Positions 7,381 to 60,515 of a DNA stretch of 64,000 nt are shown in pieces. Made by a program: the position numbers and the translations under genes. The stretch lies in assembly GCA_012411765.1 (NCBI GenBank), contig GCA_012411765.1_3031.1, one strand, 5' to 3'. The DNA comes from a phage. The notes under the pieces are model-generated. The model was given only the letters and a program-made list of their open reading frames with translations, made no database searches and had not been told where the DNA came from. The stretch's first letter is position 1; each line of letters starts with the position of its first letter.

Positions 7381-7394
7381 TCTTTGACGATTTA

Positions 7395-7418
7395 AGGGAC
7401 CTTCGGGTCCCTTTAGTT
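7395..7418 (+). terminator. Intrinsic terminator after gene 23
   Basis: AGGGACC-TTCG-GGTCCCT followed by T-rich run. Confidence 0.7.
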
Positions 7419-7428
7419 GTTTTTATGG

Positions 7429-7436
7429 TATAAATA
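7429..7436 (+). promoter_or_regulatory. Late promoter TATAAATA for gene 24
   Basis: Exact octamer about 28 nt upstream of gp24 ATG. Confidence 0.6.
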
Positions 7437-7463
7437 AATCATATAAACCAAAAGGAAAGCGCA

Positions 7464-12470: not shown

Positions 12471-12483
12471 AATATTTCCTCAG

Positions 12484-12491
12484 TATAAATA
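12484..12491 (+). promoter_or_regulatory. Late promoter TATAAATA upstream of uvsW
   Basis: Exact octamer about 30 nt upstream of uvsW ATG. Confidence 0.55.
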
Positions 12492-12520
12492 TAGATATAT
12501 TTATTACATGGTATTTAGAC

Positions 12521-14032
12521 ATGACTGACATTAAAGTACATTTTTATGATTTTAGTCACGTGAGAATTGATTGTGAAGAAAGTACATTTCATGAACTCCG
12601 TGATTTCTTTAGCTTTGAAGCTGATGGGTATCGTTTTAATCCGAAGTACAAATATGGTCATTGGGATGGACGAATCCGTCTTTTAGATTATAATCGTCTT
12701 CTTCCATTCGGCTTAGTCGGGCAAATTAAAAAGTTCTGCGATAACTTTGGCTATAAAGCCTGGATTGACCCACAAATTAACGAAAAAGAAGAATTATCAA
12801 GAAAAGATTTTGATGAATGGCTTTCTAAATTAGAAATCTATTCAGGAAATAAAAGAATTGAACCACACTGGTATCAAAAGGATGCAGTGTTCGAAGGATT
12901 AGTTAATCGTCGTAGAATTCTTAATCTTCCAACATCCGCAGGTAAATCTTTAATTCAAGCTTTGCTTGCACGTTATTATTTGGAAAATTATGAAGGTAAA
13001 ATTCTTATCATTGTTCCAACAACTGCTCTGACAACTCAGATGGCTGATGACTTTGTTGACTATCGTTTATTCAGTCATGCAATGATAAAGAAAATCGGTG
13101 GTGGAGCATCAAAAGATGATAAATATAAAAATGATGCGCCAGTCGTTGTTGGTACATGGCAAACTGTAGTAAAACAGCCGAAAGAATGGTTCTCACAGTT
13201 TGGAATGATGATGAATGATGAATGCCATCTTGCTACAGGAAAAAGTATTTCATCTATCATATCAGGTTTAAATAACTGCATGTTCAAATTCGGTTTGTCT
13301 GGTTCATTACGCGATGGCAAAGCCAATATCATGCAGTATGTTGGAATGTTCGGTGAAATATTTAAGCCAGTAACGACCTCTAAATTAATGGAAGATGGAC
13401 AAGTAACTGAGCTAAAAATTAATAGTATTTTTCTTCGCTATCCCGATGAGTTCACTACTAAATTAAAGGGAAAAACTTATCAAGAAGAAATAAAAATTAT
13501 TACTGGGCTTAGTAAAAGAAATAAATGGATCGCTAAATTAGCTATTAAGCTTGCGCAAAAAGATGAAAACGCTTTTGTCATGTTTAAACATGTATCGCAT
13601 GGTAAAGCTATTTTCGATTTAATTAAAAATGAATACGATAAAGTTTATTACGTATCAGGGGAAGTTGATACCGAAACCCGCAATATAATGAAAACCTTAG
13701 CTGAAAATGGTAAAGGAATAATTATAGTAGCTAGTTATGGTGTATTTTCTACTGGTATTTCAGTTAAAAATCTGCATCACGTTGTTTTAGCGCACGGTGT
13801 TAAATCAAAAATCATTGTATTACAAACAATCGGTCGTGTATTACGTAAGCATGGTTCTAAAACAATCGCAACAGTCTGGGACCTCATAGATGATTGTGGC
13901 GTTAAGCCAAAATCTGCTAATACGAAAAAGAAATATGTTCATTTGAACTATCTTTTAAAACACGGCATTGATCGTATTCAGCGCTACGCAGATGAAAAAT
14001 TTAATTACGTAATGAAAACAGTTAATTTATAA
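12521..14032 (+). CDS. uvsW: UvsW RNA-DNA / DNA-DNA helicase (503 aa)
   Basis: SF2 helicase motifs (PTSAGKS Walker A, DECH box), 503 aa. Confidence 0.95.
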   Translation: MTDIKVHFYDFSHVRIDCEESTFHELRDFFSFEADGYRFNPKYKYGHWDGRIRLLDYNRLLPFGLVGQIKKFCDNFGYKAWIDPQINEKEELSRKDFDEWLSKLEIYSGNKRIEPHWYQKDAVFEGLVNRRRILNLPTSAGKSLIQALLARYYLENYEGKILIIVPTTALTTQMADDFVDYRLFSHAMIKKIGGGASKDDKYKNDAPVVVGTWQTVVKQPKEWFSQFGMMMNDECHLATGKSISSIISGLNNCMFKFGLSGSLRDGKANIMQYVGMFGEIFKPVTTSKLMEDGQVTELKINSIFLRYPDEFTTKLKGKTYQEEIKIITGLSKRNKWIAKLAIKLAQKDENAFVMFKHVSHGKAIFDLIKNEYDKVYYVSGEVDTETRNIMKTLAENGKGIIIVASYGVFSTGISVKNLHHVVLAHGVKSKIIVLQTIGRVLRKHGSKTIATVWDLIDDCGVKPKSANTKKKYVHLNYLLKHGIDRIQRYADEKFNYVMKTVNL

Positions 14033-22884: not shown

Positions 22885-22938
22885 TCCTCATGTTATGTCA
22901 GTAAGTCTACTATAACACAACACGAGGGACTTGTAAAC
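22885..22938 (-). repeat. 54-bp dispersed repeat (promoter-containing), copy 1; copy 2 at 38207-38260
   Basis: tcctcatgttatgtcagtaagtctactataacacaacacgagg(g/a)acttgtaaac present at both loci with one mismatch. Confidence 0.8.
22909..22938 (-). promoter_or_regulatory. Early promoter (GTTTACA-N17-TATAGT), part of a 54-bp repeat shared with the alc promoter
   Basis: Minus-sense GTTTACAagtccctcgtgttgtgtTATAGT upstream of 22877 ATG. Confidence 0.6.
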
Positions 22939-24995
22939 TACATCTTGAACTTTTTAGACATTCCGTTGATGTTAACCAAAGAAGCCAAGATTTGAGAAAC
23001 TTCGTTTTCCTCTTCTTTTGATTCTTCTACAAGGAATTGATTAAATCCAGCCATTGGACGAACTTCACCAGTTTCCATTAAATGGTCGCCATCATATATT
23101 GATTCTTCTAATTGTTCAGAAGGAGGAACGATTGTACCTTCGATTAGATACTTGTTATAAGCAGTTTCTTTCATAAAGTACGTACTTACTTTATTAATCT
23201 TCAGTAAAATTCCACGCGGTAGAATAACTTCAGCTTCTGATGGAAATCCTGATAAATGACCTGGAACGATAACTTTGATTCGCTCAGCTCCTTTAATTAC
23301 CATACCCACGCTAGTTTCAGCATCTTCATTGGCATATGTAGAATGACTACCCATATGCATTAAATCTTCTGCATCAACGGAACCTTCTCCTTCGTCAGAA
23401 AATACTGCGCCGGAATCATCTAGAGCCATATAGTTTTTACCATGCTCACCGAAGATATTTGGTTTAAGTGATGTCGATACGAAGTTCTTGAAATAGAACA
23501 TTTTGTTTTCAATGTTATGACGCAAAGTTTTAAAGGTAACTTCTTGTCCACGGTAAAGTGTAGTTCCTGGAGGAAGAACTGATCCTTTGGCAAAGGCAGA
23601 ATCTAACGTCTCGATGTGCTTAATAGCTCTTTCCATGTATTCTTCACGGGTAGAATCTGGTTTACCCAAAAGGAACGAGTTCATTTCAACATATGAATCT
23701 GCACAATAATCTTCAATTACATCAGATTCAGCCTGAGTCAGTCCTTTTGGAGTTACTTCGGTGCTTGCGTATTCATATGCCTGAGCAGCAGATTCATTAA
23801 TCAATTTATAAATGCCATTCATTACAAATTGAATAATAGCTGTCTTTTCATCTGATGTAGCTTTAGAACCTTTAACTAAATCATTGATAATTTTCTTAAT
23901 AACATCAAAGCTATTAGAAATATTAATGTCAGCAAGATCGCTTAAAATTTTATCAGTTTTATAATCAAAGAATTCTTTATTCTTTAAATATTCTTGAGAA
24001 CCTTGATATGTTATATCGCTCTGCAGCTTGATAGATGGATCGCGTAAACGTGCATGGGCTAATGCAATATGATTTCGGAAACTTTCTAGTTCATAATCAT
24101 TAGATTTAAAACGAGAAGCACTTCTCATACCACCGATAGCTCCTTTGCTGAAGTTTGAACCAATCTGGATAACGCCAGAGTTCATTGGTCCTTCTGCTTT
24201 ATATACCGGAACTTTAGATTCAAACTCTTGATATTTCTTGGCAGCGAAGCTATCGCCCTGAAGTGAAGCATCAACAGTAGAATATTGAGCTTGTGCTGCT
24301 AATCGACGACTAATTTTAGTTTTCTGAATAACAGCTTGATCAGTGCGCTTATCATTTTCTAAAGCAATAGAAGCAGCAACAGCGACAGCTTTAGGAACAG
24401 CATTACCTGTTTTAACGTCTACATAAACATCACCAACCTTTGATTCAACTTTTGTGAATAACTCAGTTGAAATAGGAGGTACACCTGGAATGTCTTCTAA
24501 ATTGGCATTTTTACGGTAAACCATAATATATGCATATTTTTTATCATAGTCCCAGATTTCCTTTAAAAGAACATATCGACCTGCTCCCTTAGTACGTACT
24601 AAACGGTCAGCAATAACTTGCATTTGACGAGCTGCGCCATTTGTTTTACTCTTTAGTACGCGGAATAGGCATGCGTCGATTTTATACTGTTTCATTGTTT
24701 GAAGAGCAGTATCAAAAACGGCATTAATGACACCAATTGGATTTCCACCCAAGTTTTTAAGCTTAACTAATGATAGTTTCTCATTGACACCTATCATTAC
24801 AATATGCATCATTTTATCGCCTGGCTTAACGTTTTTATTTGTATCACCACCAGAGGTGTATGTACAAAATCTAAATCCAGGAAGCACGCTTTCTTCACCG
24901 GCTTGGATAGCAAAAATTTGTGGTATTTTATGCTTAGGATTTAAGTTAACAACCGGCGCCGAAGCGCCGTCAAATAATTCTGTAATAAGTTCCAT
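22938..24995 (-). CDS. Alt-family ADP-ribosyltransferase paralog (685 aa) with N-terminal capsid-targeting sequence
   Basis: N-term MELITELFD; C-terminal R/S-T-S/E-x-E motifs (YRG, FVSTSL, EAEVILPRG). Confidence 0.85.
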   Translation of the reverse strand: MELITELFDGASAPVVNLNPKHKIPQIFAIQAGEESVLPGFRFCTYTSGGDTNKNVKPGDKMMHIVMIGVNEKLSLVKLKNLGGNPIGVINAVFDTALQTMKQYKIDACLFRVLKSKTNGAARQMQVIADRLVRTKGAGRYVLLKEIWDYDKKYAYIMVYRKNANLEDIPGVPPISTELFTKVESKVGDVYVDVKTGNAVPKAVAVAASIALENDKRTDQAVIQKTKISRRLAAQAQYSTVDASLQGDSFAAKKYQEFESKVPVYKAEGPMNSGVIQIGSNFSKGAIGGMRSASRFKSNDYELESFRNHIALAHARLRDPSIKLQSDITYQGSQEYLKNKEFFDYKTDKILSDLADINISNSFDVIKKIINDLVKGSKATSDEKTAIIQFVMNGIYKLINESAAQAYEYASTEVTPKGLTQAESDVIEDYCADSYVEMNSFLLGKPDSTREEYMERAIKHIETLDSAFAKGSVLPPGTTLYRGQEVTFKTLRHNIENKMFYFKNFVSTSLKPNIFGEHGKNYMALDDSGAVFSDEGEGSVDAEDLMHMGSHSTYANEDAETSVGMVIKGAERIKVIVPGHLSGFPSEAEVILPRGILLKINKVSTYFMKETAYNKYLIEGTIVPPSEQLEESIYDGDHLMETGEVRPMAGFNQFLVEESKEEENEVSQILASLVNINGMSKKFKM

Positions 24996-24998
24996 GAT

Positions 24999-27086
24999 TT
25001 ATCCTTGAACGAACTTGTAAGGCATGTTTGTAATATCTATGCAAGACGCAATAATTCCAAGAGATGATTCTACTTTCTGTTTAACATTTGATGAAACAAA
25101 TGATGCAAAGTCAACTCTATCTTCTATATCACCTGTCATTGTAACCAATTCACCAGTTTCCATTAAATGGTCTCCGTCATAGATTACCGATTCGGTGAGT
25201 TCTTCTGTGGTCATAACTTCAGCTTGAATGAGTTTTGTATTATTAGATGTTGTTCCGTCATTATTAGAAGCATCAGTTATTTTATTAACTTTGACCATCA
25301 ATCCGCGCGGTAGAATAACTTCAGCTTCTGTTGCTATTCCGAGACTTCCTGGATATACAACATTAACTTTATGAGCTCCATCAATTGCCCATCCTATTTG
25401 AACTTTAACGTATTCAGGATTTTCTTTATACGCTCTTATTTCGTTTGGATTAATAATTATTCCTTCTTCATTTTTATCAACTGTTAATTCATTGCGAGCT
25501 TCTGGTTCTAAAAGACCAATACCAGCATGTGTGATTCCAAAACGTCCAAAAATGATAGGAGTTAAAGAAGTAGATACAAAATTTCTGAAGTAGAACACTT
25601 TATTTTTAACTAACGCTTCATATATAGGAGCAGTCATACTTTGAGCACGATAAACTGTAATGCCTTCTGGTATACGGTCACCATTTTCAAAAGCTGAATC
25701 TAAGTTATTTATAGCAGATTCAATTTCTTTTTCACTCATTACATCATATCGTTCTGGATTGTAACGACCTAAAAGAAGATTATTGATGTCAGTATATCCT
25801 GAACCGCAATATTCTCTAATGCCACGCTTTTGTGATGGAGTATATTTAGAACCATCACGGGCAATAGTAATATCAATCATTGGACCAGCACCAATTCCAG
25901 AAAAACTGTAAATCATTCGTTTGAGGAATTTAGTTTTTGCTGCGTTCCAGGAATTTTTAGTTATTTCTTCCCAGACTTCATCTGGTTGTCCTTTACGATT
26001 TTTATTATGATTAGCAAGCCATTTATCTTTATAATCTTCAAAGAATTGATTTACAGCTGCTGCGTATTTCTCTAAACATTTTATTGAAGTAGTTGGTTCA
26101 TTTTTAATTGCATTAAAAATTACTTCTTTAATTTTTTCTGAAACTTCACCGACTTGACTCATTGGAAAGAATTTATAATCATAGTGAAGTTCATCTGCCG
26201 TTCCTTCAGCAATAATTTTTGCTGCCTTTGTTTTAGAAGCTAATGAATTAATTCCAATTTTCATTTCTTCTGCTTCGGGAATTAAAGGTGCAGTAGCTGG
26301 TTTATTGAAATTAGCTGCGGTAGATTCATACTTCTGGAATAATTCACTTTCAAATCTAGAAGATTCCAATGATTGACTTTGCGCAATTGCTCTACGGGAA
26401 ATTTTAACTTTAACGATTACAGCTTGGTCAGAACGTTTATCATTTTCTTGTGCAATAGATGCTGCAATTGCCTCATTTTTAGTTACTTGGGCTCCAGTAT
26501 CTTTATTGATATAAACATCGCCGACTTTCGATTCAACTTTAGTAAAGAGCTCGGTACTAATTTCCGGAACTCCTGGAATGTCTTCTAGTGATACATTTTT
26601 GCGATGTATAAGAATATATGCATACTTTTTATCATAATCCCAGAGTTCCTTAAGAAGGACGTATCTGCCACCTGAACGACTACGGATAAGTCTATCAGCA
26701 ATAACTTGAATTTGTCGAGCTTGACCTGCGGTTTTAGACTTAAGAATACGAAGCATACAAGCATCAATTTTATACTGACGCATAGTTTGCATTGCAACAG
26801 TAAAAACTGAATTGATATAATTAATTGGGCTTGGACCAAGACCTTTTAATTTAGCAATTGAACCTTTAGCAGTTAATGTAAAAGGAACAATATGCATCAT
26901 TTTATCGCCCATCTTTAAATCGCGATTAGTATCACCTCCAGATGTATAGGTACATAAACGAAAGCCTGGTTGTTCAATTGCATCATCAACATGAACTGAA
27001 AAAATTTGTGGTATTTTCTTCTTTGGGTTTAAGTTTGTAATCGGAAGAGTAGTATCTTCGTCAAATAATTCTGTAATGAGTTCCAT
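24999..27086 (-). CDS. alt: Alt ADP-ribosyltransferase (695 aa from second ATG; track ORF begins MM at 27089)
   Basis: N-term MELITELFDEDTTLPIT; R-S-E motifs (YRA, FVSTSL, EAEVILPRG); late promoter upstream. Confidence 0.85.
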   Translation of the reverse strand: MELITELFDEDTTLPITNLNPKKKIPQIFSVHVDDAIEQPGFRLCTYTSGGDTNRDLKMGDKMMHIVPFTLTAKGSIAKLKGLGPSPINYINSVFTVAMQTMRQYKIDACMLRILKSKTAGQARQIQVIADRLIRSRSGGRYVLLKELWDYDKKYAYILIHRKNVSLEDIPGVPEISTELFTKVESKVGDVYINKDTGAQVTKNEAIAASIAQENDKRSDQAVIVKVKISRRAIAQSQSLESSRFESELFQKYESTAANFNKPATAPLIPEAEEMKIGINSLASKTKAAKIIAEGTADELHYDYKFFPMSQVGEVSEKIKEVIFNAIKNEPTTSIKCLEKYAAAVNQFFEDYKDKWLANHNKNRKGQPDEVWEEITKNSWNAAKTKFLKRMIYSFSGIGAGPMIDITIARDGSKYTPSQKRGIREYCGSGYTDINNLLLGRYNPERYDVMSEKEIESAINNLDSAFENGDRIPEGITVYRAQSMTAPIYEALVKNKVFYFRNFVSTSLTPIIFGRFGITHAGIGLLEPEARNELTVDKNEEGIIINPNEIRAYKENPEYVKVQIGWAIDGAHKVNVVYPGSLGIATEAEVILPRGLMVKVNKITDASNNDGTTSNNTKLIQAEVMTTEELTESVIYDGDHLMETGELVTMTGDIEDRVDFASFVSSNVKQKVESSLGIIASCIDITNMPYKFVQG

Positions 27087-27109
27087 CATATCCTCTCTAG
27101 TGTTTATTC

Positions 27110-35416: not shown

Positions 35417-36831
<1,415 letters not shown>

Positions 36832-38199: not shown

Positions 38200-38230
38200 C
38201 ATAAAGTCCTCATGTTATGTCAGTAAGTCT

Positions 38231-38260
38231 ACTATAACACAACACGAGGAACTTGTAAAC
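38231..38260 (-). promoter_or_regulatory. Early promoter for alc (GTTTACA-N17-TATAGT), second copy of the 54-bp repeat
   Basis: Near-identical to 22885-22938. Confidence 0.6.
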
Positions 38261-38263
38261 AGC

Positions 38264-39851
<1,588 letters not shown>

Positions 39852-39858
39852 AATAAAA

Positions 39859-39874
39859 TGGGCCTTGCGGCCCA
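39859..39874 (-). terminator. Hairpin downstream of nrdB
   Basis: TGGGCC-TTGC-GGCCCA stem-loop. Confidence 0.45.
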
Positions 39875-39878
39875 CTCC

Positions 39879-41057
39879 TTAAAAGTATTTTTTAAAACTC
39901 ATCATAACTTTATCATCAACATCATTATCAATCTGTGCAACAAGGTAAGATGACAGTTCTACTTCTTGTGGCGCGGATTGAACATTATCAGAATTAAGAT
40001 ATTCACGAATCCAAGGATATGGATGTTTAACCGGAGCATCGGTAATTGGGCATGGAAGACCACACTGTTTCATACGAGATACAGTTAAGTAATCAATAAA
40101 GCTCCACATGCTATTTGTATTTAATCCAGGAACATCGCCATCTTTAAATAAATGAACCGCCCAATCTTTTTCTTGGCGGTTAACTTCCATGAAAATATCA
40201 ACTGCTTCTTGTTCACACTCTTGGGCAATTTTAACCCATTCATCGCCATCAGTACCGGATTGAAGCTGACGAATAATATATTGAGTGCCTTTAAGGTGAA
40301 GCTGCTCATCACGCGCAATGAACTTCATAATCTTGGCATTACCTTCCATGATTTCCATATTCTTATGGAAGTTAAAGGTACATGCGAAAGATACATAAAA
40401 CCGAATAGCTTCTAAAGCATTAATAACGTGCAAACAGAGGTAAAGAGATTTCATTAAAGCACGTTTAGCTTCGGCTTCTTGTTTAATAGCTCGGTTTAAA
40501 CGAAAGTCGGCATCAGGAGATTCTTTAGCTAGTTCTACAAATTCTTTAGCATTTTCCCATTCACGAGTTTTAATCAGAACATCATCATAATAACGTCCAA
40601 TTGATTCAGCACGTTTCATAATAGCTTCATCTAATACAATCTCATCAAATACCTTTGACGGATCAGTATAAAGATTTCGCATGATATGAGTATATGAACG
40701 ACTATGAATAGTTTCACTAAAAGTCCATGTAGCAACCCATGTATCAAGACTTGGGTCTGAAATTAATGACATAAGTACAGCAGACGGTGCACGACCCTGA
40801 ATGCTATCCAAAAGTGATTGATACTTCAGGTTATTAGTAAAAATATTTTGCTGATACTGAGGAAGCTTATTAAACTGTGCAGCATCCATCATTAAGTTTA
40901 CTTCTTCAGGACGCCAGAAAAATGATAATTGCTTTTCGGTCAAATCTTCAAAAACTTTATGGCGTTGAATATCATAACGCGCAATACCAAGACCTGAACC
41001 AAAAAACATGGGTTCTTTTAAAACATCAACTGGATTTGTATTAAAAACTGTGCTCAT
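39879..41057 (-). CDS. nrdB: Ribonucleotide reductase small subunit, uninterrupted (no intron)
   Basis: 392-aa continuous ORF with R2 features; no internal non-coding insert. Confidence 0.93.
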   Translation of the reverse strand: MSTVFNTNPVDVLKEPMFFGSGLGIARYDIQRHKVFEDLTEKQLSFFWRPEEVNLMMDAAQFNKLPQYQQNIFTNNLKYQSLLDSIQGRAPSAVLMSLISDPSLDTWVATWTFSETIHSRSYTHIMRNLYTDPSKVFDEIVLDEAIMKRAESIGRYYDDVLIKTREWENAKEFVELAKESPDADFRLNRAIKQEAEAKRALMKSLYLCLHVINALEAIRFYVSFACTFNFHKNMEIMEGNAKIMKFIARDEQLHLKGTQYIIRQLQSGTDGDEWVKIAQECEQEAVDIFMEVNRQEKDWAVHLFKDGDVPGLNTNSMWSFIDYLTVSRMKQCGLPCPITDAPVKHPYPWIREYLNSDNVQSAPQEVELSSYLVAQIDNDVDDKVMMSFKKYF

Positions 41058-41108
41058 AAATTTTCCACTTAGTTAATAGTTGGTGACTCGTCCATGAGTC
41101 AAATTATA

Positions 41109-43373
41109 TCATAATTTACAGGATGAACAATCTTCAGCTTTTGGAGTTTCTATTTCATAATCATCAGTACCAGAACCATCGCGGGTATTATGATAATAGA
41201 AATTTTTTCCGCCAAAATACCAAAAATACAAAAGGTCATCAATCATTATTGACATTGGAACCTTTCCTTTTGGAAAAATCTGCGGGTCATAGTATGTATT
41301 CGCCGAAGCTGATTGACAAACCCATTTCAGCATAATAGCTACCTGCGTAAGATAAGGTTTATTACCTTTCTTAGCTAATTTCCATGTATAATCATAGAGG
41401 TCTATGTTATGCTCAATATTGGGCACGACTTGATTAAAGGAGCCCTCTTTTGATTCTTTAACAGAGACTGGTCCACGTGGAGGCTCGATACCGTTTGTAC
41501 TGTTAGAAACTTGGGAAGATGACTCACATGGCATAAGTGCTGATAATGTGCTATTACGGATGCCAAAGAGCTTAAGGTCTTCCCGCAGCGACGACCAGTC
41601 ACAAACGTATTTTGGAGCTGCGATTTGGTCAATCTTTTTATTGTACCAGTCGATAGGTAATTCGCCTCGAGACCAACGAGTGTCTGAATAATATTCGCAA
41701 GGTCCTTTTTCTTTGGCGAGCTTAATGGATGCTTTAATGAGTCCATACTGTAATCTCTCAAATAGTTCATGTGTTAAATCGTTAGCATCTTCATAAGAAG
41801 CAAAGTTACTTGCCAGCCAAGCTGCATAGTTGGTAACACCTACACCGAGGTTACGACGCTTTTTAGCTTTTTCTGCTTCAGGAACTGGATATCCTTGGTA
41901 ATCCAAAAGATTATCAAGAGCACGAACTTGAACTTCTGCCAATTCATTAATTTTATCTTGGTCTTGCCAGTCAAAATTATCTAGTACGAATGCAGAGAGA
42001 GTACACAATCCAATTTCAGCATCAGGGCTATTCACATCATTTGTTGGAATAGCAATTTCACAGCACAAGTTACTCTGACGAATAGGTGCTTTTTCACGAA
42101 TAAACGGAGTGTAGTTATTCGTATTATCAATGAACTGCACATAAATCCTTGCTGTTCCTGAACGTTCAGTCATGAGCAATTCAAATAGTTCACGGGCTTT
42201 AATACGCTTTTTGCGAATATTAGGGTCTTTTTCTGCTGCTTCGTATAATTCACGGAAACGGTCTTGGTCTTTAAAATAAGAATAATAAAGCTCTCCACCC
42301 ATTTCATGCGGACTGAACAAAGTAATGTAATCGTTCTTTCCAAAACGTTCCATCATTAGGTCATTCAGTTGAACACCATAATCCATATGACGAATGCGGT
42401 TTTCTTCTACGCCTTTGTTATTTTTCAAAACGAGAAGATTTTCAACTTCCAAATGCCAAATAGGATAATAAGCAGTAGCAGCGCCGCCACGAATTCCACC
42501 CTGTGAACATGATTTAACTGCAGTCTGAAAATGTTTCCAAAAAGGAATAACACCGGTATGGCGTACTTCACCCATGCCAATCTTAGAACCTTCGGCACGA
42601 ATCATACCAACGTTAATACCAATTCCAGCGCGTTTAGAGATATATTCAACAATTGAAGCAGAAGCCTTATTGATAGACTTTAATGAATCACCTGCCTCAA
42701 TAACAACACATGAACTAAACTGTCGAGTCGGAGTACGGCAACCAGCCATAATAGGAGTTGGTAATGAAATCTGTCGAGTAGATACTGCTTCATAAAAACG
42801 AATAACGTGTTTTAGTCTATCAACAGGTTCATCTTGATGCAATGCCATTCCAATAGCCATAAATGCAAACTGCGGAGTTTCATAAATTTGACCAGTGGTT
42901 TTATCTTTAACTAGATATTTTTCTTTTAATTGCATCGCCCCGGAATAAGTAAATTCCATATCCCGTTCGTGCTTAATTTTTGATTCTAAAAATGTAATTT
43001 CTTCTGCTGAATATTTTGACAATAATTCAGGGTCGTATTTACCTGCATTTACACAGTAAGAAATATGGTCAATAAATGAACGTGGTTCATACTGTCCATA
43101 AACATGCTTACGAAGAGCGAACATTAAACAGCGTGCAGCTACATATTGATAATCAGGTTCTTCAACCGAAATAGAATTCGCAGCGGCCTTAATGACAATA
43201 GTCTGAATATCATCAGTTGTCATTCCATCACGGAGATAAGATTTAATATTTTCATATAATTCATAAGGATCTACTGATGTTCCCTCAGCTGCCCAAGATA
43301 AAACTTTAATAATTTTTTGTGGGTCAAAGCTCTGAGAAACACCACTACTTTTGATAACATTAATTAATTGCAT
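41109..43373 (-). CDS. nrdA: Ribonucleotide reductase large subunit (754 aa)
   Basis: 754 aa, ATP-cone N-terminus, catalytic Cys region. Confidence 0.95.
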   Translation of the reverse strand: MQLINVIKSSGVSQSFDPQKIIKVLSWAAEGTSVDPYELYENIKSYLRDGMTTDDIQTIVIKAAANSISVEEPDYQYVAARCLMFALRKHVYGQYEPRSFIDHISYCVNAGKYDPELLSKYSAEEITFLESKIKHERDMEFTYSGAMQLKEKYLVKDKTTGQIYETPQFAFMAIGMALHQDEPVDRLKHVIRFYEAVSTRQISLPTPIMAGCRTPTRQFSSCVVIEAGDSLKSINKASASIVEYISKRAGIGINVGMIRAEGSKIGMGEVRHTGVIPFWKHFQTAVKSCSQGGIRGGAATAYYPIWHLEVENLLVLKNNKGVEENRIRHMDYGVQLNDLMMERFGKNDYITLFSPHEMGGELYYSYFKDQDRFRELYEAAEKDPNIRKKRIKARELFELLMTERSGTARIYVQFIDNTNNYTPFIREKAPIRQSNLCCEIAIPTNDVNSPDAEIGLCTLSAFVLDNFDWQDQDKINELAEVQVRALDNLLDYQGYPVPEAEKAKKRRNLGVGVTNYAAWLASNFASYEDANDLTHELFERLQYGLIKASIKLAKEKGPCEYYSDTRWSRGELPIDWYNKKIDQIAAPKYVCDWSSLREDLKLFGIRNSTLSALMPCESSSQVSNSTNGIEPPRGPVSVKESKEGSFNQVVPNIEHNIDLYDYTWKLAKKGNKPYLTQVAIMLKWVCQSASANTYYDPQIFPKGKVPMSIMIDDLLYFWYFGGKNFYYHNTRDGSGTDDYEIETPKAEDCSSCKL

Positions 43374-43690
43374 AAGTCCTCAACTTGAAAATCGTCTTTA
43401 AACAATCGGTTAACTATATGAGCTATTATATCACCATGACACGGCTTTGGTTTACATGTGCATCCTAGCCTCATTCCACGCAAAGGCTCTAAATGTGCTT
43501 TAGTTATTTCTCCGGATTTAATTCGACGTATAAAATCTTTTTTGAATAATTCAATGGCAGCCTCCCGGCTGCCAGCATCTTTACCGACGTAATTTCCCCA
43601 AAATGTACCGCGGTGAATATTAACATCAAAGTCGGATTTATATTTATTCACTACCCGGCATAGACGGCCCACGCTGGAATAATTCGTCAT
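43364..43690 (-). CDS. nrdA.1: Hypothetical protein with Cys/His cluster ([11 protein letters not shown])
   Basis: ATG-start ORF between nrdA and td. Confidence 0.6.
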
Positions 43691-43907
43691 ATTGTTTTTC
43701 CGTTAAAACAGTAATATCGTAGTAACAGTCAGAAGAAGTTTTAACTGTGGAAATTTTATTATCAAAATACTCACGAGTCATTTTATGAGTATAGTATTTT
43801 TTACCATAAATGGTAATAGGCTGTTCTGGTCCTGGAACTTCTAACTCGCTTGGGTTAGGAAGTGTAAAAAGAACAACGCCAGAAGTATCTTTAAATCGTA
43901 AAATCAT
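43644..43907 (-). CDS. nrdA.2: Hypothetical protein
   Basis: ATG-start ORF, overlapping junctions. Confidence 0.55.
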
Positions 43908-44764
43908 ATTGCCATTTTCCCTTTAATTGCTGGATGCGATTCATAATTTTCAAGGATAAAATCTTTCGGTTTCATGTATTCAGTTAACCAGTAAAGCTGT
44001 GTTTCGGTGTCACAATTTCCAAACTCTATAGGCCAATCAATTTTAAGTTCACATAGTTCTTTAGGCTCACGACGTAAAATTTCTTTACATTGCTCAGTAT
44101 GATTCATATAGATGTGAGTATTACCACCAGAAAATATCAAATCTCCTGGGATAAGATTACACATCTTAGCCACAATATGTGTCAAGGCAGCGTACGAGGC
44201 AATGTTGAATGGCAATCCCAAGAAAACATCTACACTTCTTTGGTACCATTGTAAATCAAGATAACCATTACGCACATTAAACTGATAGAACATATGACAG
44301 GGCGGTAATGCCATTTGATTGATTTCAGCTGGATTCCATGCTGAAACGATTTGACGTCGATCAGTTGGTAATTTTTTAATACGATCAATAGTTTCAACTA
44401 ATTGATCCACACCACCGAAATCACGCCATTGTTTACCGTATATAGGACCAAGTTCACCACTATGATATCCTAGGTCTTTAGCCTGGTTTTCATAGTTATC
44501 GTCCCAAATAGTTTTACCTTGAATAAGACTACCATGAGTGCGAAGACGTAAATCATTAACATTGGTAGAACCGGAAATAAACCATAGAAGCTCAGCAATA
44601 CATGCATTCCACGCAAGCTTCTTAGTTGTTACCGCAGGAAAACCTTTAGTTAAATCCCAGCGTAATTTAGTACCGAACAAAGCAATTGTTCCTGTGCCTG
44701 TTCGGTCATCGGTTTCATAACCATTTTCAAAAATGTCTTTAATTAAATCTTGGTATTGTTTCAT
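43904..44764 (-). CDS. td: Thymidylate synthase (286 aa), uninterrupted (no group I intron)
   Basis: Continuous 286-aa ORF; catalytic PPCH motif ([11 protein letters not shown]). Confidence 0.96.
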
Positions 44765-44808
44765 TTAGTACCTTATATAAATTATAATACATTTTATGAA
44801 GCTAATAA

Positions 44809-45168
44809 TCAATACGGTTTAGCAACAAATTTTCTCTCAATTTCAGGCGTGAAATATAATTCTTTACCGCGTTTGGAAAAGCGACCAATAATATGATAAT
44901 TATTCTCATCAAACGTGATATTACCAATATCCATAGCTTTCAACCAAATATCGATATTTCTATCCAGCTTTATGTCAAAATTCCAATACGGAGAACTATT
45001 ACCGAAAATACTGCAAGCGGATTCAGTGAAACAACTGCTATAAATCTTGTCTTTAGGAACTACTAATTGATAGACACCTTTAATAAACTGAGGACCCTGC
45101 CACTTTGGCTGTTTCGCGTCTTTTTCTAATAGAATAGGGTAATAATTAAAATTCATATTTTCCGCCAC
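44809..45168 (-). CDS. Hypothetical protein (115-119 aa) in an insertion between frd and td; GTG at 45168 or ATG at 45156
   Basis: ORF fills a ~410 bp gap between frd stop and td start; no recognisable motif. Confidence 0.55.
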   Translation of the reverse strand: MAENMNFNYYPILLEKDAKQPKWQGPQFIKGVYQLVVPKDKIYSSCFTESACSIFGNSSPYWNFDIKLDRNIDIWLKAMDIGNITFDENNYHIIGRFSKRGKELYFTPEIERKFVAKPY

Positions 45169-45176
45169 GCGTTATT

Positions 45177-46003
<827 letters not shown>

Positions 46004-46014
46004 ATCATCTCCAA

Positions 46015-46347
46015 TTAAAAAGGATCAGGAACGTATCCGCTAGCTTTAATCATTTTAATTAACGTTAACATTCCTTTGTTAACTGCTCGTGAGATTTCAT
46101 CAAAAGCTTCAGGATTAAAAAGTTCTAACACGCCCTTCTGAACTTTTAATTTACAGCCAACAATTTCTTCATCGCCTATAGTAAATTCATTACCACCAAT
46201 TCCTCCGAAAAACTTAATTACACCAGTTAACTGTCTTCCACGAGAATATGGGTCGTGTGATAAATTAATATGAGTCACCCCGGGTACAGTTTTAAATTGG
46301 CAGCGAATGTTTACTTGGGAAATTCCAGTTACATGAATATCAGACAT
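46015..46347 (-). CDS. Hypothetical protein (110 aa)
   Basis: ATG-start ORF. Confidence 0.55.
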   Translation of the reverse strand: MSDIHVTGISQVNIRCQFKTVPGVTHINLSHDPYSRGRQLTGVIKFFGGIGGNEFTIGDEEIVGCKLKVQKGVLELFNPEAFDEISRAVNKGMLTLIKMIKASGYVPDPF

Positions 46348-46357
46348 AATATTTTCC

Positions 46358-46600
46358 TCAAACAGACTTTTTCACAATTTTCCAATCAGCTTTAAACTGT
46401 TCAACGTCAGAATGGTAAATCCAGAATCCTGCGCTTTCTCCATCCTCATAAAGAGGGCATCCATCACATTCATCTTCCCATCCCATATCACGCAAAAGAC
46501 GTTCAGCTTTTTCAACAAGTTCAGAATCTTTACCAATAATATTAAAATACCATTTACCTCTAACTTCTGAATCTTTGATACTCTGACGTTGTAATCTCAT
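46358..46600 (-). CDS. Hypothetical protein (80 aa from ATG; track start is TTG inside the promoter)
   Basis: AAGGAG-N6-ATG at 46600; early promoter at 46626-46655. Confidence 0.55.
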   Translation of the reverse strand: MRLQRQSIKDSEVRGKWYFNIIGKDSELVEKAERLLRDMGWEDECDGCPLYEDGESAGFWIYHSDVEQFKADWKIVKKSV

Positions 46601-46625
46601 TTTATTCTCCTTAGTTGATAAGGCT

Positions 46626-46655
46626 ATAGTATCACTACCATAGCCTGTTGTAAAC
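46626..46655 (-). promoter_or_regulatory. Early promoter GTTTACA-N17-TACTAT
   Basis: Minus-sense GTTTACAacaggctatggtagtgaTACTAT. Confidence 0.55.
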
Positions 46656-46657
46656 AA

Positions 46658-46918
46658 TTATTTTTGAATTTTATCGAGCCACTTACCAAGCTTAATCATT
46701 TCTTTAGTAGCCTTTTCCATACTTCTGAACTTAACCAATAGAGGATAGGTATCGACACCCATAACTAAACTGGTTACAAGACTGTGTTCACCCACAAGCC
46801 ATAACGAATACGTTTGAATATCGAGCCCGTAATTTCTGTCTTTGTGGACCCGTACACCCATCACTTCAAATTTCTCACTAGCTTTTTCTACCGCATTCAG
46901 GAAATCATCTTTAGTCAT
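46658..46918 (-). CDS. Hypothetical protein (86 aa from ATG)
   Basis: Track start TTG; ATG at 46918. Confidence 0.5.
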   Translation of the reverse strand: MTKDDFLNAVEKASEKFEVMGVRVHKDRNYGLDIQTYSLWLVGEHSLVTSLVMGVDTYPLLVKFRSMEKATKEMIKLGKWLDKIQK

Positions 46919-46919
46919 A

Positions 46920-47300
46920 TTAGGCCTTAAAAGTTTTTCGCAAAAGTTCAATGATTTCGTCTACATTGTTTTCATCTACAATGCAGTGAATTTTTGTTAC
47001 GCCAGAAACCTTGTCTTTGACTTCATCTTTTTCAGAAGTCGGTTCTTTATACTCACGAAAACAATGAAATTCGTCTTCGCAAATTTCTAAAAGTCTATCT
47101 TTGAGGTAAAAATGCTTTCCATTTGCGCATTCAATGTGTTTTACTGCTTTATATCCGTTAGCGACGGAAACTTCTTTAACCTCAAACCATCCGCCATTAT
47201 CTCGAATGGCTTTAACTATTGATGAATTAGAACGTGGGCTATAATTAATAAATGTATCAATAAGTCTTGGAACAAGTTCATACTTTTTACCAGTATACAT
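46920..47300 (-). CDS. Hypothetical protein (126 aa), Cys/His-containing
   Basis: ATG-start ORF. Confidence 0.55.
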   Translation of the reverse strand: MYTGKKYELVPRLIDTFINYSPRSNSSIVKAIRDNGGWFEVKEVSVANGYKAVKHIECANGKHFYLKDRLLEICEDEFHCFREYKEPTSEKDEVKDKVSGVTKIHCIVDENNVDEIIELLRKTFKA

Positions 47301-47575: not shown

Positions 47576-47618
47576 ATTATTTTCCTCTTTAATCATCAGC
47601 AGTATTGCCGATAGTTGT

Positions 47619-47648
47619 ATAGTACCATGGAAGGACAAGGATGTAAAC
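47619..47648 (-). promoter_or_regulatory. Early promoter GTTTACA-N17-TACTAT (shares the motif tggtactatacaactatc with the motA promoter)
   Basis: Minus-sense GTTTACAtccttgtccttccatggTACTATACAACTATC. Confidence 0.55.
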
Positions 47649-47678
47649 TGTTTTGTGAAAAAAATTTGAAATAAAAAA

Positions 47679-47697
47679 GGGGACCTCTAGGGTCCCC
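47679..47697 (-). terminator. Terminator hairpin downstream of gene 32
   Basis: GGGGACC...GGTCCCC stem followed (minus sense) by T-run. Confidence 0.6.
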
Positions 47698-47719
47698 AAT
47701 TAATTAATAATATAATCTA

Positions 47720-48628: not shown

Positions 48629-48727
48629 TTTTATTTCCTTTTTAATTTAATTAACAGTTGGTGCTATGACGATGTATGACCTCATAGCTGGTCAATGAGA
48701 TAATTATAATCTATTTATAATAAGCAA
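48629..48727 (-). promoter_or_regulatory. Gene 32 mRNA leader: AU-rich translational operator (UUAAAUUAAAAAGGAAAUAAAAAUG), upstream pseudoknot-like region and a late promoter (48712-48719)
   Basis: Minus-sense leader matches the classic gp32 autoregulatory operator architecture. Confidence 0.6.
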
Positions 48728-56723: not shown

Positions 56724-59700
56724 ATGGCTACTTTAAAACAAATACAATTTAAAAGAAGCAAAACCGCAGGTGCACGTCCTGCTGCTTCAGTATTAGCCGA
56801 AGGTGAATTGGCTATAAACTTAAAAGATAGAACAATTTTTACTAAAGATGATTCAGGAAATATCATTGATTTAAGCATTTCCGCTGGCGGTAATATCAGT
56901 GGAAATGTAACTATTGATGGAACTTTACGCGTCAATGGACCAATAAACAATTTTGGAAATTTTTCCACAAGTGGCCAGATTACCGCTGGTAGTAGTATTT
57001 CAGCTCAAGTTTTTAGAGCATTGCAAGGTTCGTTTTATACAAGAGCATCAAATGATGTCTCAAATGCCCATTTATGGTTTGAAAATGCCGATGGCACTGA
57101 ACGAGGCGTTATATATGCTCGTCCTCAAACTACAACTAACGGTGAAATACGCCTTAGGGTTAGACAAGGATCAGGAAGCACCATTAATAGCGAATTCTAT
57201 TTCCGTTCTATAAACGGCGGTGAATTTCAAGCCAATCGTATTTTAGCATCAGATTCGTTAGTAACAAAACGCATTGCAGCTGATACAGTTATTCACGGTG
57301 GCAAAGCCTTTGGTGTATATGATACGGATTCATTAGTTAACTACGTATACCCAGGCACCGGTGAAACTAACGGAGTAAACTATCTTCGTAAAGTTCGCGC
57401 TAAATCAGGCGGTACCATATGGCATGAGCTTTGTACTGCTCAATCAGGCCAAGCTGATGAAATGTCTTGGTGGACCGGTTCTACTCCTATTTCAAAACAA
57501 TTTGGTATTCGTAATGACGGTCGGATGATTGTCCGCAATAGTCTTGCATTAGGCACTATGACTACTGATTTTCCATCGAGCGATTATGGTAATGGTGGCG
57601 CATTAGGATTCGGTGCTTATTTGGCTCTAGGTGATAACGGGACTGGTTTACGCTATCAAAAAACCGGTGTTTATGATTTAGTTGGTTCCGGATTGTCTGT
57701 TGCATCTATTACTCCAGATAGTTTCCGTAGTACTCGCAAAGGTTTATTTGGACGTTCAGAAGACCAAGGCACCACATGGATTATGCCTGGAACGAACGCT
57801 GCATTTTTATCAGTTCAAACACAGGCTGATGAAAACACTGCTGGAGACGGCCAGACGCATATTGGCTATAACTCAGGCGGAAAAATGAACCACTATTTCC
57901 GTGGTAAAGGCAAAACTAATATTAATACTCAGGAAGGTATGGAAGTTAATCCGGGTATTTTGAAATTGGTAACTGGCTCTAATAATGTAATGTTTTATGC
58001 TGATGGCGGTATTACATCTGTTAAGCAGCTTTCAATATATAATGGCATATATTTAGCAGCTAATAATTCTACTGCTGGGCTAACATTCGCTCCAACTACT
58101 ACAATTGATGGTACTAAGCAAATTTTGTGGGAAGGCGGTACTCGTGCTGGGCAGAATAAAAGCTATGTAACTGTTAAAGCGTGGGGTAATTCATTTAACG
58201 CATCTGGCGATCGTAATCGTGAAACGGTTTTTGAAGTAGCTGACGGACAAGGTTATTATTTTTATTCCCAACGCGTAGCCCCAAGCGGCTCAGAAACTAC
58301 TGGTCCTGTTGTAACCCAGTTCAATGGACAAGTTAATGCTAGAGGAAGTATTATTACTGACGGAAGTTTTAAAGTTAATGGATTAAGCACTTTAGTCGGT
58401 AATGTTACTATGTCTAACGGTTTGTTTGTCCAAGGTGGTTCTTCTATTACTGGACAAGTTAAAATCGGCGGAACTGTTGATGCATTAAGAATTTGGAATG
58501 CTGAATACGGTGCTATTTTCCGCCGTTCAGAAGCATCATTACATATTATCCCGACTCCTAAAGATGCTGGTGAAAGTGGTGGAATAAGTAATCTCCGCCC
58601 GTTAAGTATTAGTCTTAATAATGGTATGGTACAAATGCGTCATTCTGTCACGTTAGGTGATGATGGTGCAGGCGGTAATATGATTACTGTGGACAACGAT
58701 AACAAACGTGTTGTTGTTGCTAGTAATAGTCGTATTGCTCCTAATTTCAGAATGCAATTAGGGCAATCATCTTATATTGATGTAGAATGTACTGATGCTG
58801 CTCGCCCAGCCGGTGCAGGTTCATTTGCATCCCAGAATGACGCAAACGTAAGAGCTCCAATTTATATGAATATAGAGCGTACTGCTGCTTCTGAATATAT
58901 TCCAATTGTTAAACAGCGGTATGTAAATGGTGATAGTACTTATTCTATTGGCACCTTAATTTCTCAAGGAGACTTTCGCGTTCATTATCACCAGGGTACT
59001 AGTACTACCGGTACTGATTTAAGCTGGGAATTCCGTCGCAATGGTGATTTCCGCGCGGCAGGTAAAATTATTGCCGGTGCTGCTACTTTTGGCACTGATG
59101 GTAATATTACTGGTGGTTCAGGAAACTTTGCCAACTTAAACAGCACAATTGAATCACTTAAAACTGATATTGTTTCAAGTTATCCTATTGGGGCTCCTAT
59201 TCCATGGCCAACGGATACTCCTCCTGACGGTTACGCTATTATGGAAGGCCAGACCTTTGATAAGTCTGCGTATCCAAAGCTAGCTGTTGCATATCCTAGT
59301 GGCGTTATTCCGGATATGCGCGGGCAAACTATTAAAGGTAAACCGAGTGGTCGTAATGTATTAAGCGCGGAAGCTGATGGTATTAAGTCTCATACCCATG
59401 GAGCATCTGCATCCAATACAGATTTAGGTACTAAAACTACATCAAGCTTTGATTATGGCACTAAGACCTCTTCAAGTTTTGACTATGGTACTAAAACCAG
59501 TAATACCACAGGTAACCACTCTCATACTGTAAGCGGTACTACGAGTTCTGCTGGTGCACACCAACATGCGCGCTCAGGTCCTCAGTTACAAGCCGGCATA
59601 CCCAATAACATATTCTATGACGGATATAATACTGTAGGTGCAAACGCCAACGCTAAAATCACCGGATCTGTGAGCGGTGCTACTGCAGGGTCAAATATAG

Positions 59701-59936
59701 CCAAAACTTCTTCAGACGGTGCTCATACTCATACTTGGTCTGGTACTACAAGCACTACAGGTAACCATGCTCACACAGTAGGTATTGGTGCTCATACCCA
59801 TACTGTAGGTATCGGTGCTCATACCCACACGGTAGCAATTGGCTCGCATGGTCATACTATCACTGTAAATAGTACAGGTAATACAGAAAACACGGTTAAA
59901 AACATCGCTTTTAACTATATCGTTCGTTTAGCATAA
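56724..59936 (+). CDS. 37: Long tail fibre distal subunit gp37 (receptor-binding, 1070 aa) with His-x-His repeats near C-terminus
   Basis: C-terminus ...[15 protein letters not shown] and GxHxH repeats as in T4 gp37. Confidence 0.95.
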
Positions 59937-59963: not shown

Positions 59964-60515
59964 ATGAAAATTTATCATTATTATTTTGACACTAAAGAAT
60001 TTTATAAAGAAGAAAATTATAAACCAATTAAAGGATTAGGTCTTCCTGCACATTCAACAACTAAAAAACCTTTAGAACCTAAAGAAGGATATGCGGTTGT
60101 ATTTGATGAAAGAATTCAAGATTGGATTTATGAAGAAGACCATCGCGGTAAACGAGCCTGGACTTTTAATAAAGAAGAAATTTTAATAGGCGAAATAGGA
60201 AGTTTAGTAGGTGTAACTTTTGATGAGCCCGGCGAATTTGATATATGGACTGATGACGGTTGGAAAGAAGACGAAACATATAAGCGAGTTTTAATTCGTA
60301 ATAGAAAAATTGAAGAATTATATAAAGAGTTCCAAGTTTTAAATAATATGATTGAAGCTTCTGTCGCGAATAAAAAGGAAAAATTCTATTATAAAAACCT
60401 TAAGCGGTTCTTTGCTCTTTTAGAAAAGCATGAGCATTTAGGTGGTGAATTTCCTAAATGGCCTGAAAAAGAACAGAAGCCTTGGTATAAGCGTTTATTC
60501 AAGCATTACGTATAA
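59964..60515 (+). CDS. 38: gp38, T4-type tail fibre assembly chaperone (183 aa)
   Basis: 183 aa MKIYHYYFDTKEFYKEENYKPIKGLGLPAHS; not the longer T2-type adhesin. Confidence 0.9.
   Translation: MKIYHYYFDTKEFYKEENYKPIKGLGLPAHSTTKKPLEPKEGYAVVFDERIQDWIYEEDHRGKRAWTFNKEEILIGEIGSLVGVTFDEPGEFDIWTDDGWKEDETYKRVLIRNRKIEELYKEFQVLNNMIEASVANKKEKFYYKNLKRFFALLEKHEHLGGEFPKWPEKEQKPWYKRLFKHYV

Follow-up and report, generated by a model that had tools for sequence, protein, structure and literature searches.

Uninterrupted td and nrdB genes and empty homing-element sites in a 64-kb genome segment of a T4-related phage

Results

The window, i.e. the whole 64-kb stretch of DNA analysed, carries td and nrdB as continuous reading frames enclosing nrdA, nrdA.1 and nrdA.2, with denA adjoining nrdB and a small open reading frame located between frd and td (Table 1). 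A whole-window BLASTN comparison with T4 (NC_000866) revealed colinearity with positions 99,143-163,682 of T4, an identity of 90-98% and a gene order kept throughout. Unlike T4, the window contains the frd-td reading frame, four other small reading frames, a full second alt paralog and one additional Hoc repeat.

Table 1. Genes, empty sites and T4-specific blocks in the window
Feature	Position in window	Strand	Position in T4	Size	Basis or remark
23-24 intergenic region	7381..7463			83 bp	Empty; occupied by segD in T4
segD block	vs 7391-7452		106521-107311		Missing from window; BLASTN
inh-uvsW intergenic region	12471..12520			50 bp	Empty; occupied by segE in T4
segE block	vs 12507-12527		112044-112680		Missing from window; BLASTN
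denA (endonuclease II)	39441..39875	-			99% identical to T4 DenA (TBLASTN)
nrdB	39879..41057	-		392 aa	Uninterrupted; ORF list, BLASTN
nrdB intron with I-TevIII	between 40381 and 40382		138458-139055	598 nt	Missing from window; BLASTN
nrdA-nrdB intergenic region	41058..41108			51 bp	Empty; occupied by nrdB.1 and mobE in T4; 48/51 identical to T2
nrdB.1 and mobE block	vs 41058-41112		139720-140419	~700 bp	Missing from window; BLASTN
nrdA	41109-43373	-			Colinear with T4
nrdA.1	43364-43690	-			Colinear with T4
nrdA.2	43644-43907	-			Colinear with T4
td	43904..44764	-		286 aa	Uninterrupted, RB14-type allele; ORF list, BLASTN
I-TevI homing-site equivalent (-27 to +12)	44204..44242	-			Alignment to T4 intron-deleted site
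td intron with I-TevI	between 44215 and 44216		143547-144563	1017 nt	Missing from window; BLASTN
frd-td ORF	44809..45168	-		119 aa	Conserved, without T4 counterpart; phrog_1928
59-32 intergenic region	48629..48727			99 bp	Empty; occupied by segG in T4; 98/99 identical to T2
segG block	vs 48691-48727		147918-148542		Missing from window; BLASTN
gene 38	59964..60515	+		183 aa	T4-type tail-fibre assembly chaperone; within block 96.9% identical to T4

Just six T4-specific blocks have no counterpart in the window, namely segD, segE, the nrdB intron with I-TevIII, nrdB.1 together with mobE, the td intron with I-TevI, and segG. None of the 15 T4 homing-endonuclease proteins (SegA-G, MobA-E, I-TevI/II/III) gave a match in the window better than E=0.02 (TBLASTN), DenA being the only protein with a match. 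Furthermore, no seg-type GIY-YIG reading frame (about 200-225 aa, N-terminal domain) was detected in the window between genes 23 and 24, inh and uvsW or 32 and 59, and no mob-type HNH reading frame in the short gap between nrdA and nrdB, MobA-E and I-TevIII giving no significant TBLASTN match. Window segments unmatched by T4 contained no homing-endonuclease-like reading frame either.

Spliced T4 td and nrdB aligned codon for codon and without gaps over the insertion sites, which correspond to the positions after nucleotide 549 of td and nucleotide 676 of nrdB. The group I intron model RF00028 gave no match at E<=1 in window positions 39400-45300, and it detected both T4 introns (40.3 and 35.7 bits); the Rfam gathering threshold misses even T4's own introns, so the model was applied with an E-value threshold, the T4 sequence serving as positive control. 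The original prediction, which had described a T4 relative with a T4-type gp38, continuous and intron-free td and nrdB genes and no seg-type genes at the 23-24, inh-uvsW and 32-59 positions, is in agreement with these results: the phage is a Tequatrovirus, and the whole-window alignment to T4 proposed there as a check was colinear, with no intron in td or nrdB and no seg homologs. Its description of the phage as largely free of selfish elements holds for the 64 kb of the window, which make up 38% of a T4-sized genome and cover six of the 15 T4 element positions. The lengths of the three intergenic regions (83, 50 and 99 bp) agree with its estimate of about 50-100 bp. That mobE and nrdB.1 are missing too goes beyond its list.

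At the nrdB insertion site 47 of 50 positions were identical to the intron-deleted site of T4, with differences at -20, -5 and -2 only, and the sequence in which I-TevIII cleaves T4-type sites, at 14 and 16 bp upstream, is nearly T4-identical. The td gene shows only 77% DNA identity to td of both T4 and T2, whereas these two share 96%. It is 99.0% identical to td of RB14, and this allele was found at an identity of at least 95% in 104 phage records. In the I-TevI homing-site equivalent (dimensions taken from PMC2988022) 11 of 39 positions are substituted compared to the intron-deleted T4 site, all of them silently, so that the encoded peptide stays the same. CAAAG at 44238-44242 preserves the CNNNG cleavage motif at the correct spacing, and positions -17 to -2 are fully conserved.

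Two phages carry a 1016-nt td intron with I-TevI inside this very allele. In Lutter (MT682714) T4-type sequence is restricted to about -45 to +6, exon 2 being of the window type from +7 onward; in AV121 (OR352951) the switch from window-type to T4-type sequence occurs at about -49 to -60. Both thus differ from the window td in having a T4-type tract over the I-TevI cleavage site, and AV121 differs additionally in possessing the nrdB intron, whose I-TevIII is full-length. The presence of the intron inside the RB14-type td allele suggests that this allele has already been a homing recipient in nature. Such mosaics could in principle also have arisen by ordinary recombination, without repair initiated by I-TevI.

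The source of the window is very probably an ordinary Tequatrovirus of the teqdroes, RB18 and RB14 kind, whose element-free gene order in this interval is common to most T4 relatives including T2. The best phage record reached about 98% identity, none being identical, and the best matches form a mosaic pattern along the window. The td-nrdB region (39000-47000) aligned in a single piece with 97-98% identity to 303Ecol101PP, JK1, teqsoen, teqdroes and RB18, and positions 1-25000 aligned in a single piece to vB_Eco_Solly. Teqdroes (NC_054932) has the same layout as the window, without an annotated homing endonuclease in the interval from motA to gene 30.3, and RB14 is element-free in this stretch in the same way. 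In FriedrichMiescher, belonging to the same species as teqdroes, an endonuclease gene (243 aa) separates nrdA from nrdB, unlike in the window. The layout of the window is also found in T2 (PV958097), with gene 59, a 99-bp gap and gene 32, then frd, the small reading frame and a continuous td (861 nt), followed by nrdA.2, nrdA.1, nrdA, a 51-bp gap, a continuous nrdB (1179 nt) and denA. In the window, gene 32 is of the T2 type at its 5' end; nrdB shows 91% identity to T2 overall, the middle part being different. T2 gp38 is a T2-type adhesin, in contrast to the T4-type chaperone encoded in the window.

Among 50,697 phage records, the td intron was detected in 197, the nrdB intron in 118, segD in 53, segE in 159 and segG in 142; mobE with nrdB.1 was present in full T4-type form in 20 and with any match in 143. 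Duplicate laboratory records of T4 inflate these counts. Any one element is found in only about 3-38% of Tequatrovirus records, and these percentages depend on the choice of the denominator (about 513-661 Tequatrovirus-level records).

Some other genes of the window were considered as possible mobile or foreign elements and rejected. The product of denA, which was not on the list of the original prediction, is a GIY-YIG nuclease (PF01541, 27.5 bits against a cutoff of 22.6; phrog_1111, 'endonuclease'). It is not a seg or homing gene but the ortholog of DenA, the host-DNA-degrading nuclease, with 99% identity to T4 EndoII. The small reading frames at 36511-36831, 45758-46003, 46015-46347 and 46658-46951 belong to PHROG or DUF families without assigned function and gave no nuclease signal, and the second alt-like gene is an ADP-ribosyltransferase paralog reduced to remnants in T4. 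The conserved frd-td reading frame, located where the T4 genes overlap, had likewise not been listed before. Its AlphaFold model (20 sequences, exhaustive HMMER search; pLDDT 89.4) shows a small, beta-rich and weakly OB-like fold.

Discussion

The lack of homing elements in the window is correctly described but ordinary; descriptions of a patchy distribution of introns and of seg and mob genes in T-even phages go back to 1987-1989. Most T4 relatives have the empty state, and the phrase 'usual T4 positions' used in the original prediction is T4-centric. T4 itself was called "the outlier" (Edgell et al. 2010).

In the picture we propose, td and nrdB would be translated from unspliced mRNA, and genes 24, uvsW, nrdB and 32 would be preceded by short native intergenic regions without seg or mob cassettes, T4 being the exception with six homing elements inserted in this interval. 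In a mixed infection an element-carrying donor such as T4 or RB3 would then cut or nick the empty alleles of the window, and donor-templated repair would import the element together with a flanking donor tract, resulting in intron homing, intronless homing and local marker exclusion. That this phage is a recipient in homing and marker-exclusion crosses is plausible from its sequence, since the empty 59-32 and nrdA-nrdB sites are almost those of T2 (Table 1), the nrdB site differs from the intron-deleted T4 site at only 3 of 50 positions, and the td intron of Lutter and AV121 lies in the same allele, the I-TevI cleavage site being at the centre of the conversion tracts. T2, the classic recipient for crosses with T4 on marker exclusion and homing, was used experimentally as recipient for SegG and MobE (PMC2790892; PMC2988022), and in these crosses it is empty sites of the T2 type that are cut or nicked (PMC2790892). 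We infer that the sites of this phage would be cleaved efficiently. Because of the 11 substitutions in its site, cleavage of the window td by I-TevI could be less efficient than that of T4 or T2 td.

Alternatively, introns or seg genes might have been present in ancestors of this phage and then precisely deleted, e.g. when a spliced cDNA or an empty allele recombined with the element-bearing copy, the empty sites then being derived. The identity pattern around the nrdB insertion site, where the window is 95-100% identical to the T4 exons on both sides and only 25-55% identical 80-160 nt upstream, would fit a past exchange with an intron-carrying lineage. Elements do decay, since relatives have degenerate td introns lacking a reading frame, e.g. 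one of 254 nt in 236Ecol005PP. However, the td gene of the window lacks the T4-type tract seen at the insertion site in Lutter and AV121, T2 has nearly the same empty spacers at 59-32 and nrdA-nrdB, and neither BLASTN nor TBLASTN detected element remnants in the window. As the empty state is the majority state across hundreds of records, it is most simply ancestral, and we consider a secondary loss unlikely. It is very unlikely that the dense silent substitutions in the td site (11 of 39 positions from -27 to +12, amino acids unchanged) result from selection for resistance to I-TevI, in which case the phage would be no recipient at td. The site is no more diverged from T4 than the whole gene, its positions -17 to -2 and its cleavage motif with the correct spacing are kept, and the intron was inserted into the same allele in Lutter and AV121. 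Furthermore, I-TevI reportedly tolerates variation in the sequence of its site.

The td region would not be free of selfish elements if the frd-td reading frame were a free-standing homing endonuclease. It is labelled 'putative homing endonuclease' in FriedrichMiescher (MZ501066, bas39_0071) and in one Klebsiella phage record, and its place is a junction at which the genes of T4 overlap. Nevertheless, this function appears extremely improbable: a nuclease domain or fold of the GIY-YIG, HNH, LAGLIDADG, PD-(D/E)XK or EDxHD type was sought in Pfam, the PDB and the AF2 model and was not detected. The protein and 19 relatives have no Pfam match, phrog_1928 is without assigned function, no PDB entry matches in sequence and no nuclease fold matches the model. 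The relatives are all 99-116 aa long, none with a catalytic motif. In 555 records the reading frame is located likewise between frd and td, among them phages of Klebsiella, Enterobacter and Erwinia with 30-47% identity; the shared position across several host genera indicates a vertically inherited gene rather than a sporadic mobile one.

It is very improbable that the RB14-type td, silently recoded at 11 of 39 I-TevI positions, is a partially cleavage-resistant variant slowing down intron invasion; if true, this would help to explain why about 100 sequenced Tequatroviruses have this td allele without the intron. Still less likely is an effect of the frd-td protein on recombination or homing at td. 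Lutter and AV121 provide clean examples of short co-conversion tracts near the I-TevI cut in a diverged td allele, and in the annotation of T4 relatives the gene spacing of T4 should not be taken as the norm.

Absence of the T4 homing elements

BLASTN alignment of the whole 64 kb to T4 (NC_000866), the check named in the original prediction, gave a single colinear block series from T4 99,143 (gene 18) to 163,682 (motA) with 90-98% identity and without an intron inside td or nrdB. As predicted, both genes are continuous ORFs (Table). The T4 introns of td (T4 143547-144563, 1017 nt) and nrdB (T4 138458-139055, 598 nt) appear as clean gaps in this alignment, placing the insertion sites at 44215/44216 and 40381/40382, respectively. 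The Rfam group I intron model had no match in positions 39400-45300 at E<=1, and the same search found both introns in T4 (40.3 and 35.7 bits). These scores lie below the RF00028 gathering threshold of 50 bits, and at default both introns are missed even in T4 itself (37000-46000 of L001, our T4 sequence). A whole-window Rfam negative at the gathering threshold therefore carries no weight, and 'no Rfam hit' at default settings is not evidence for the absence of introns from a phage.

The 23-24, inh-uvsW and 32-59 spacers are short and free of endonuclease genes, as had been expected, and the nrdA-nrdB spacer, which the prediction did not mention, is empty as well. A TBLASTN search of all six window frames with the 15 homing-endonuclease proteins of T4 yielded no match better than E=0.02 except denA (99%), hence no seg homolog at these positions. 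With two introns, three seg spacers and the nrdA-nrdB spacer empty, all six T4 homing elements of the interval are missing (T4 element positions verified with Table 1 in Edgell, Gibb and Belfort 2010, PMC2988022). We also inspected all window segments absent from T4 (the hoc repeat, the second alt, five small ORFs and the variable gene 37 end), and none contains a nuclease domain. Thus, the description 'largely free of selfish elements' is valid only for the 64-kb window, i.e. for 6 of the 15 T4 element positions.

Two short protein segments are wholly unlike T4 between flanks of at least 95% identity. In NrdB this concerns KEFVELAKESPDADFRLNRAIKQEAEAKRA (40480-40580, codons ~160-200), about 80-160 nt upstream of the insertion site, and in td 43990-44045 (codons ~241-265), near the 3' end. 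Both are local replacement hot spots.

Features of the window and td mosaics of related phages (L006, L008 and L009, sequences of AV121, Lutter and 236Ecol005PP with their own coordinates)
Feature	Position or length	Strand	Remarks
hoc	10362-11780	minus	472 aa; 376 aa in T4
Second full-length alt paralog	22938-24995	minus	not in T4
Small ORFs absent from T4	36511-36831, 45758-46003, 46015-46347, 46658-46951	minus (all)	phrog_2364, phrog_3183, phrog_3566/DUF7247, phrog_4423
nrdB	39879-41057	minus	uninterrupted ORF, 392 aa
td	43904-44764	minus	uninterrupted ORF, 286 aa
I-TevI site equivalent (-27 to +12)	44204-44242		11 substitutions, all silent
frd-td ORF	44809-45168	minus	119 aa; phrog_1928
Gene 37	56724-59936		gp37 1070 aa; 1026 aa in T4
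Gene 38, T4-type chaperone	59964-60515		183 aa; block 96.9% identical to T4
23-24 spacer	83 bp		segD in T4
inh-uvsW spacer	50 bp		segE in T4
32-59 spacer	99 bp		segG in T4
nrdA-nrdB spacer	51 bp		nrdB.1 and mobE in T4
Lutter td mosaic	L008 1501-3548		full 1016-nt intron inside window-type (RB14-type) td
AV121 td mosaic	L006 6223-8099		td intron inside window-type (RB14-type) td; window-type until ~-49 to -60, T4-type beyond
236Ecol005PP td mosaic	L009 401-1515		254-nt ORF-less intron; exon 1 window-type up to -2, exon 2 T4/T2-type

The frd-td ORF

In T4 frd and td overlap, whereas the window carries an ORF between them that has no T4 counterpart. In some public records, among them that of the BASEL phage FriedrichMiescher (MZ501066), its ortholog is labelled 'putative homing endonuclease'. 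Neither the ORF nor 19 relatives matched Pfam, a PDB sequence match to the ORF was not found, and PHROG assigns no function to its family. When 1.84 billion representatives were searched exhaustively with HMMER, only 17 relatives came up, all of 99-116 aa. The AF2 model is confident and shows a weakly OB-like beta fold; the ORF has no known relative. It occupies the identical position in 555 phage records, among them T2, RB3 and, at 30-47% identity, Klebsiella, Enterobacter and Erwinia phages. We therefore reject the endonuclease assignment. This distribution is not that of a homing element and points to a vertically conserved gene lost by T4.

Relatives and further differences from T4

Among 50,697 phage records, megablast matched hundreds of Tequatrovirus genomes, the top ones at 97-98% (303Ecol101PP, JK1, teqsoen, teqdroes, RB18, PhiZZ30, vB_Eco_Solly), none identical to the window and with the top match varying from place to place. 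Together with the T4 colinearity this makes the phage an ordinary representative of the T4 genus with a mosaic sequence. The predicted T4-type gp38 is present. Distal gp37 (58579-59793) is only ~74% identical to T4 or unalignable, which makes it the variable part that determines host range.

Instead of the single alt and the remnants alt.-1 and alt.-2 of T4, the window has tandem full-length Alt-like ADP-ribosyltransferase genes (22938-24995 and 24999-27089, both minus, 685 and 696 aa, both PF03496). The hoc gene contains an extra repeat of ~305 bp, roughly one Ig/PKD-like domain, as judged from overlapping BLAST blocks. The four small ORFs listed in the Table belong to families without assigned function and lie in the pseT/pseT.1 gap and the frd-32 interval. 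Intergenic sequences of 55-100 bp (47610-47712, 22885-22941, 38207-38260) resemble several unlinked intergenic places of T4 (e.g. T4 27042, 55346, 70658, 163635; 78-96% identity) and are probably promoter or terminator modules that are shared.

Frequency of the empty state and homing potential

Counting phage-collection records that match at least 80% of an element, we found the td intron in 197, the nrdB intron in 118, segD in 53, segE in 159, segG in 142 and full T4-type nrdB.1+mobE in 20 (143 with any match). These counts are too high, as laboratory T4 is represented by many duplicate records. Relative to ~513 records at least 90% identical to the td-nrdB region, or to 661 with a td match, each element is thus a minority trait (roughly 3-38%). 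T2 (PV958097) and teqdroes (NC_054932) show the same arrangement as the window. FriedrichMiescher, of the teqdroes species and there 95-98% identical to the window, has a gene for a putative homing endonuclease of 243 aa in the nrdA-nrdB gap (2258-2989 of its sequence, L007), so element content varies even within one species.

At individual sites, emptiness might also result from secondary loss of elements once present. Overall we regard this as improbable, since T4-type tracts are missing from the td allele, the spacers agree with their T2 counterparts (59-32, 98/99; nrdA-nrdB, 48/51) and most records are empty. The T2-like spacers would also suit a recipient of the free-standing elements. 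Gene 32 is likewise T2-type over its first 120 nt, and experiments with T2 demonstrated SegG-dependent exclusion as well as MobE-dependent nicking within the 5' part of nrdB (PMC2790892; PMC2988022). Between -30 and +20 the nrdB site differs from spliced T4 only at -20, -5 and -2.

The td gene is an RB14-type allele, common to 104 records at >=95% and 77% identical in DNA to T4 and T2 td alike (protein 83%). Such an allele might confer immunity against I-TevI, which is unlikely because the homing site has diverged no more than the remaining td and intron-carrying mosaics occur naturally. CAAAG, at the correct distance, preserves the CNNNG cleavage motif, and -17 to -2 are unchanged. In Lutter (MT682714) the T4-type tract extends only from ~-45 to +6 (~50 nt) and includes the position of the I-TevI cut (-23/-25). 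This tract and those of AV121 (OR352951) and 236Ecol005PP resemble the footprints expected of double-strand-break repair with co-conversion, which argues that the allele would be invadable.

Every statement of the original observation is confirmed, and its interpretation is supported inside the 64-kb window. Such absence of homing elements is well known, and the empty state is the common one. Judged by its sequence, the phage may reasonably be regarded as a recipient in homing, with a td allele that would be open to invasion, not immune.
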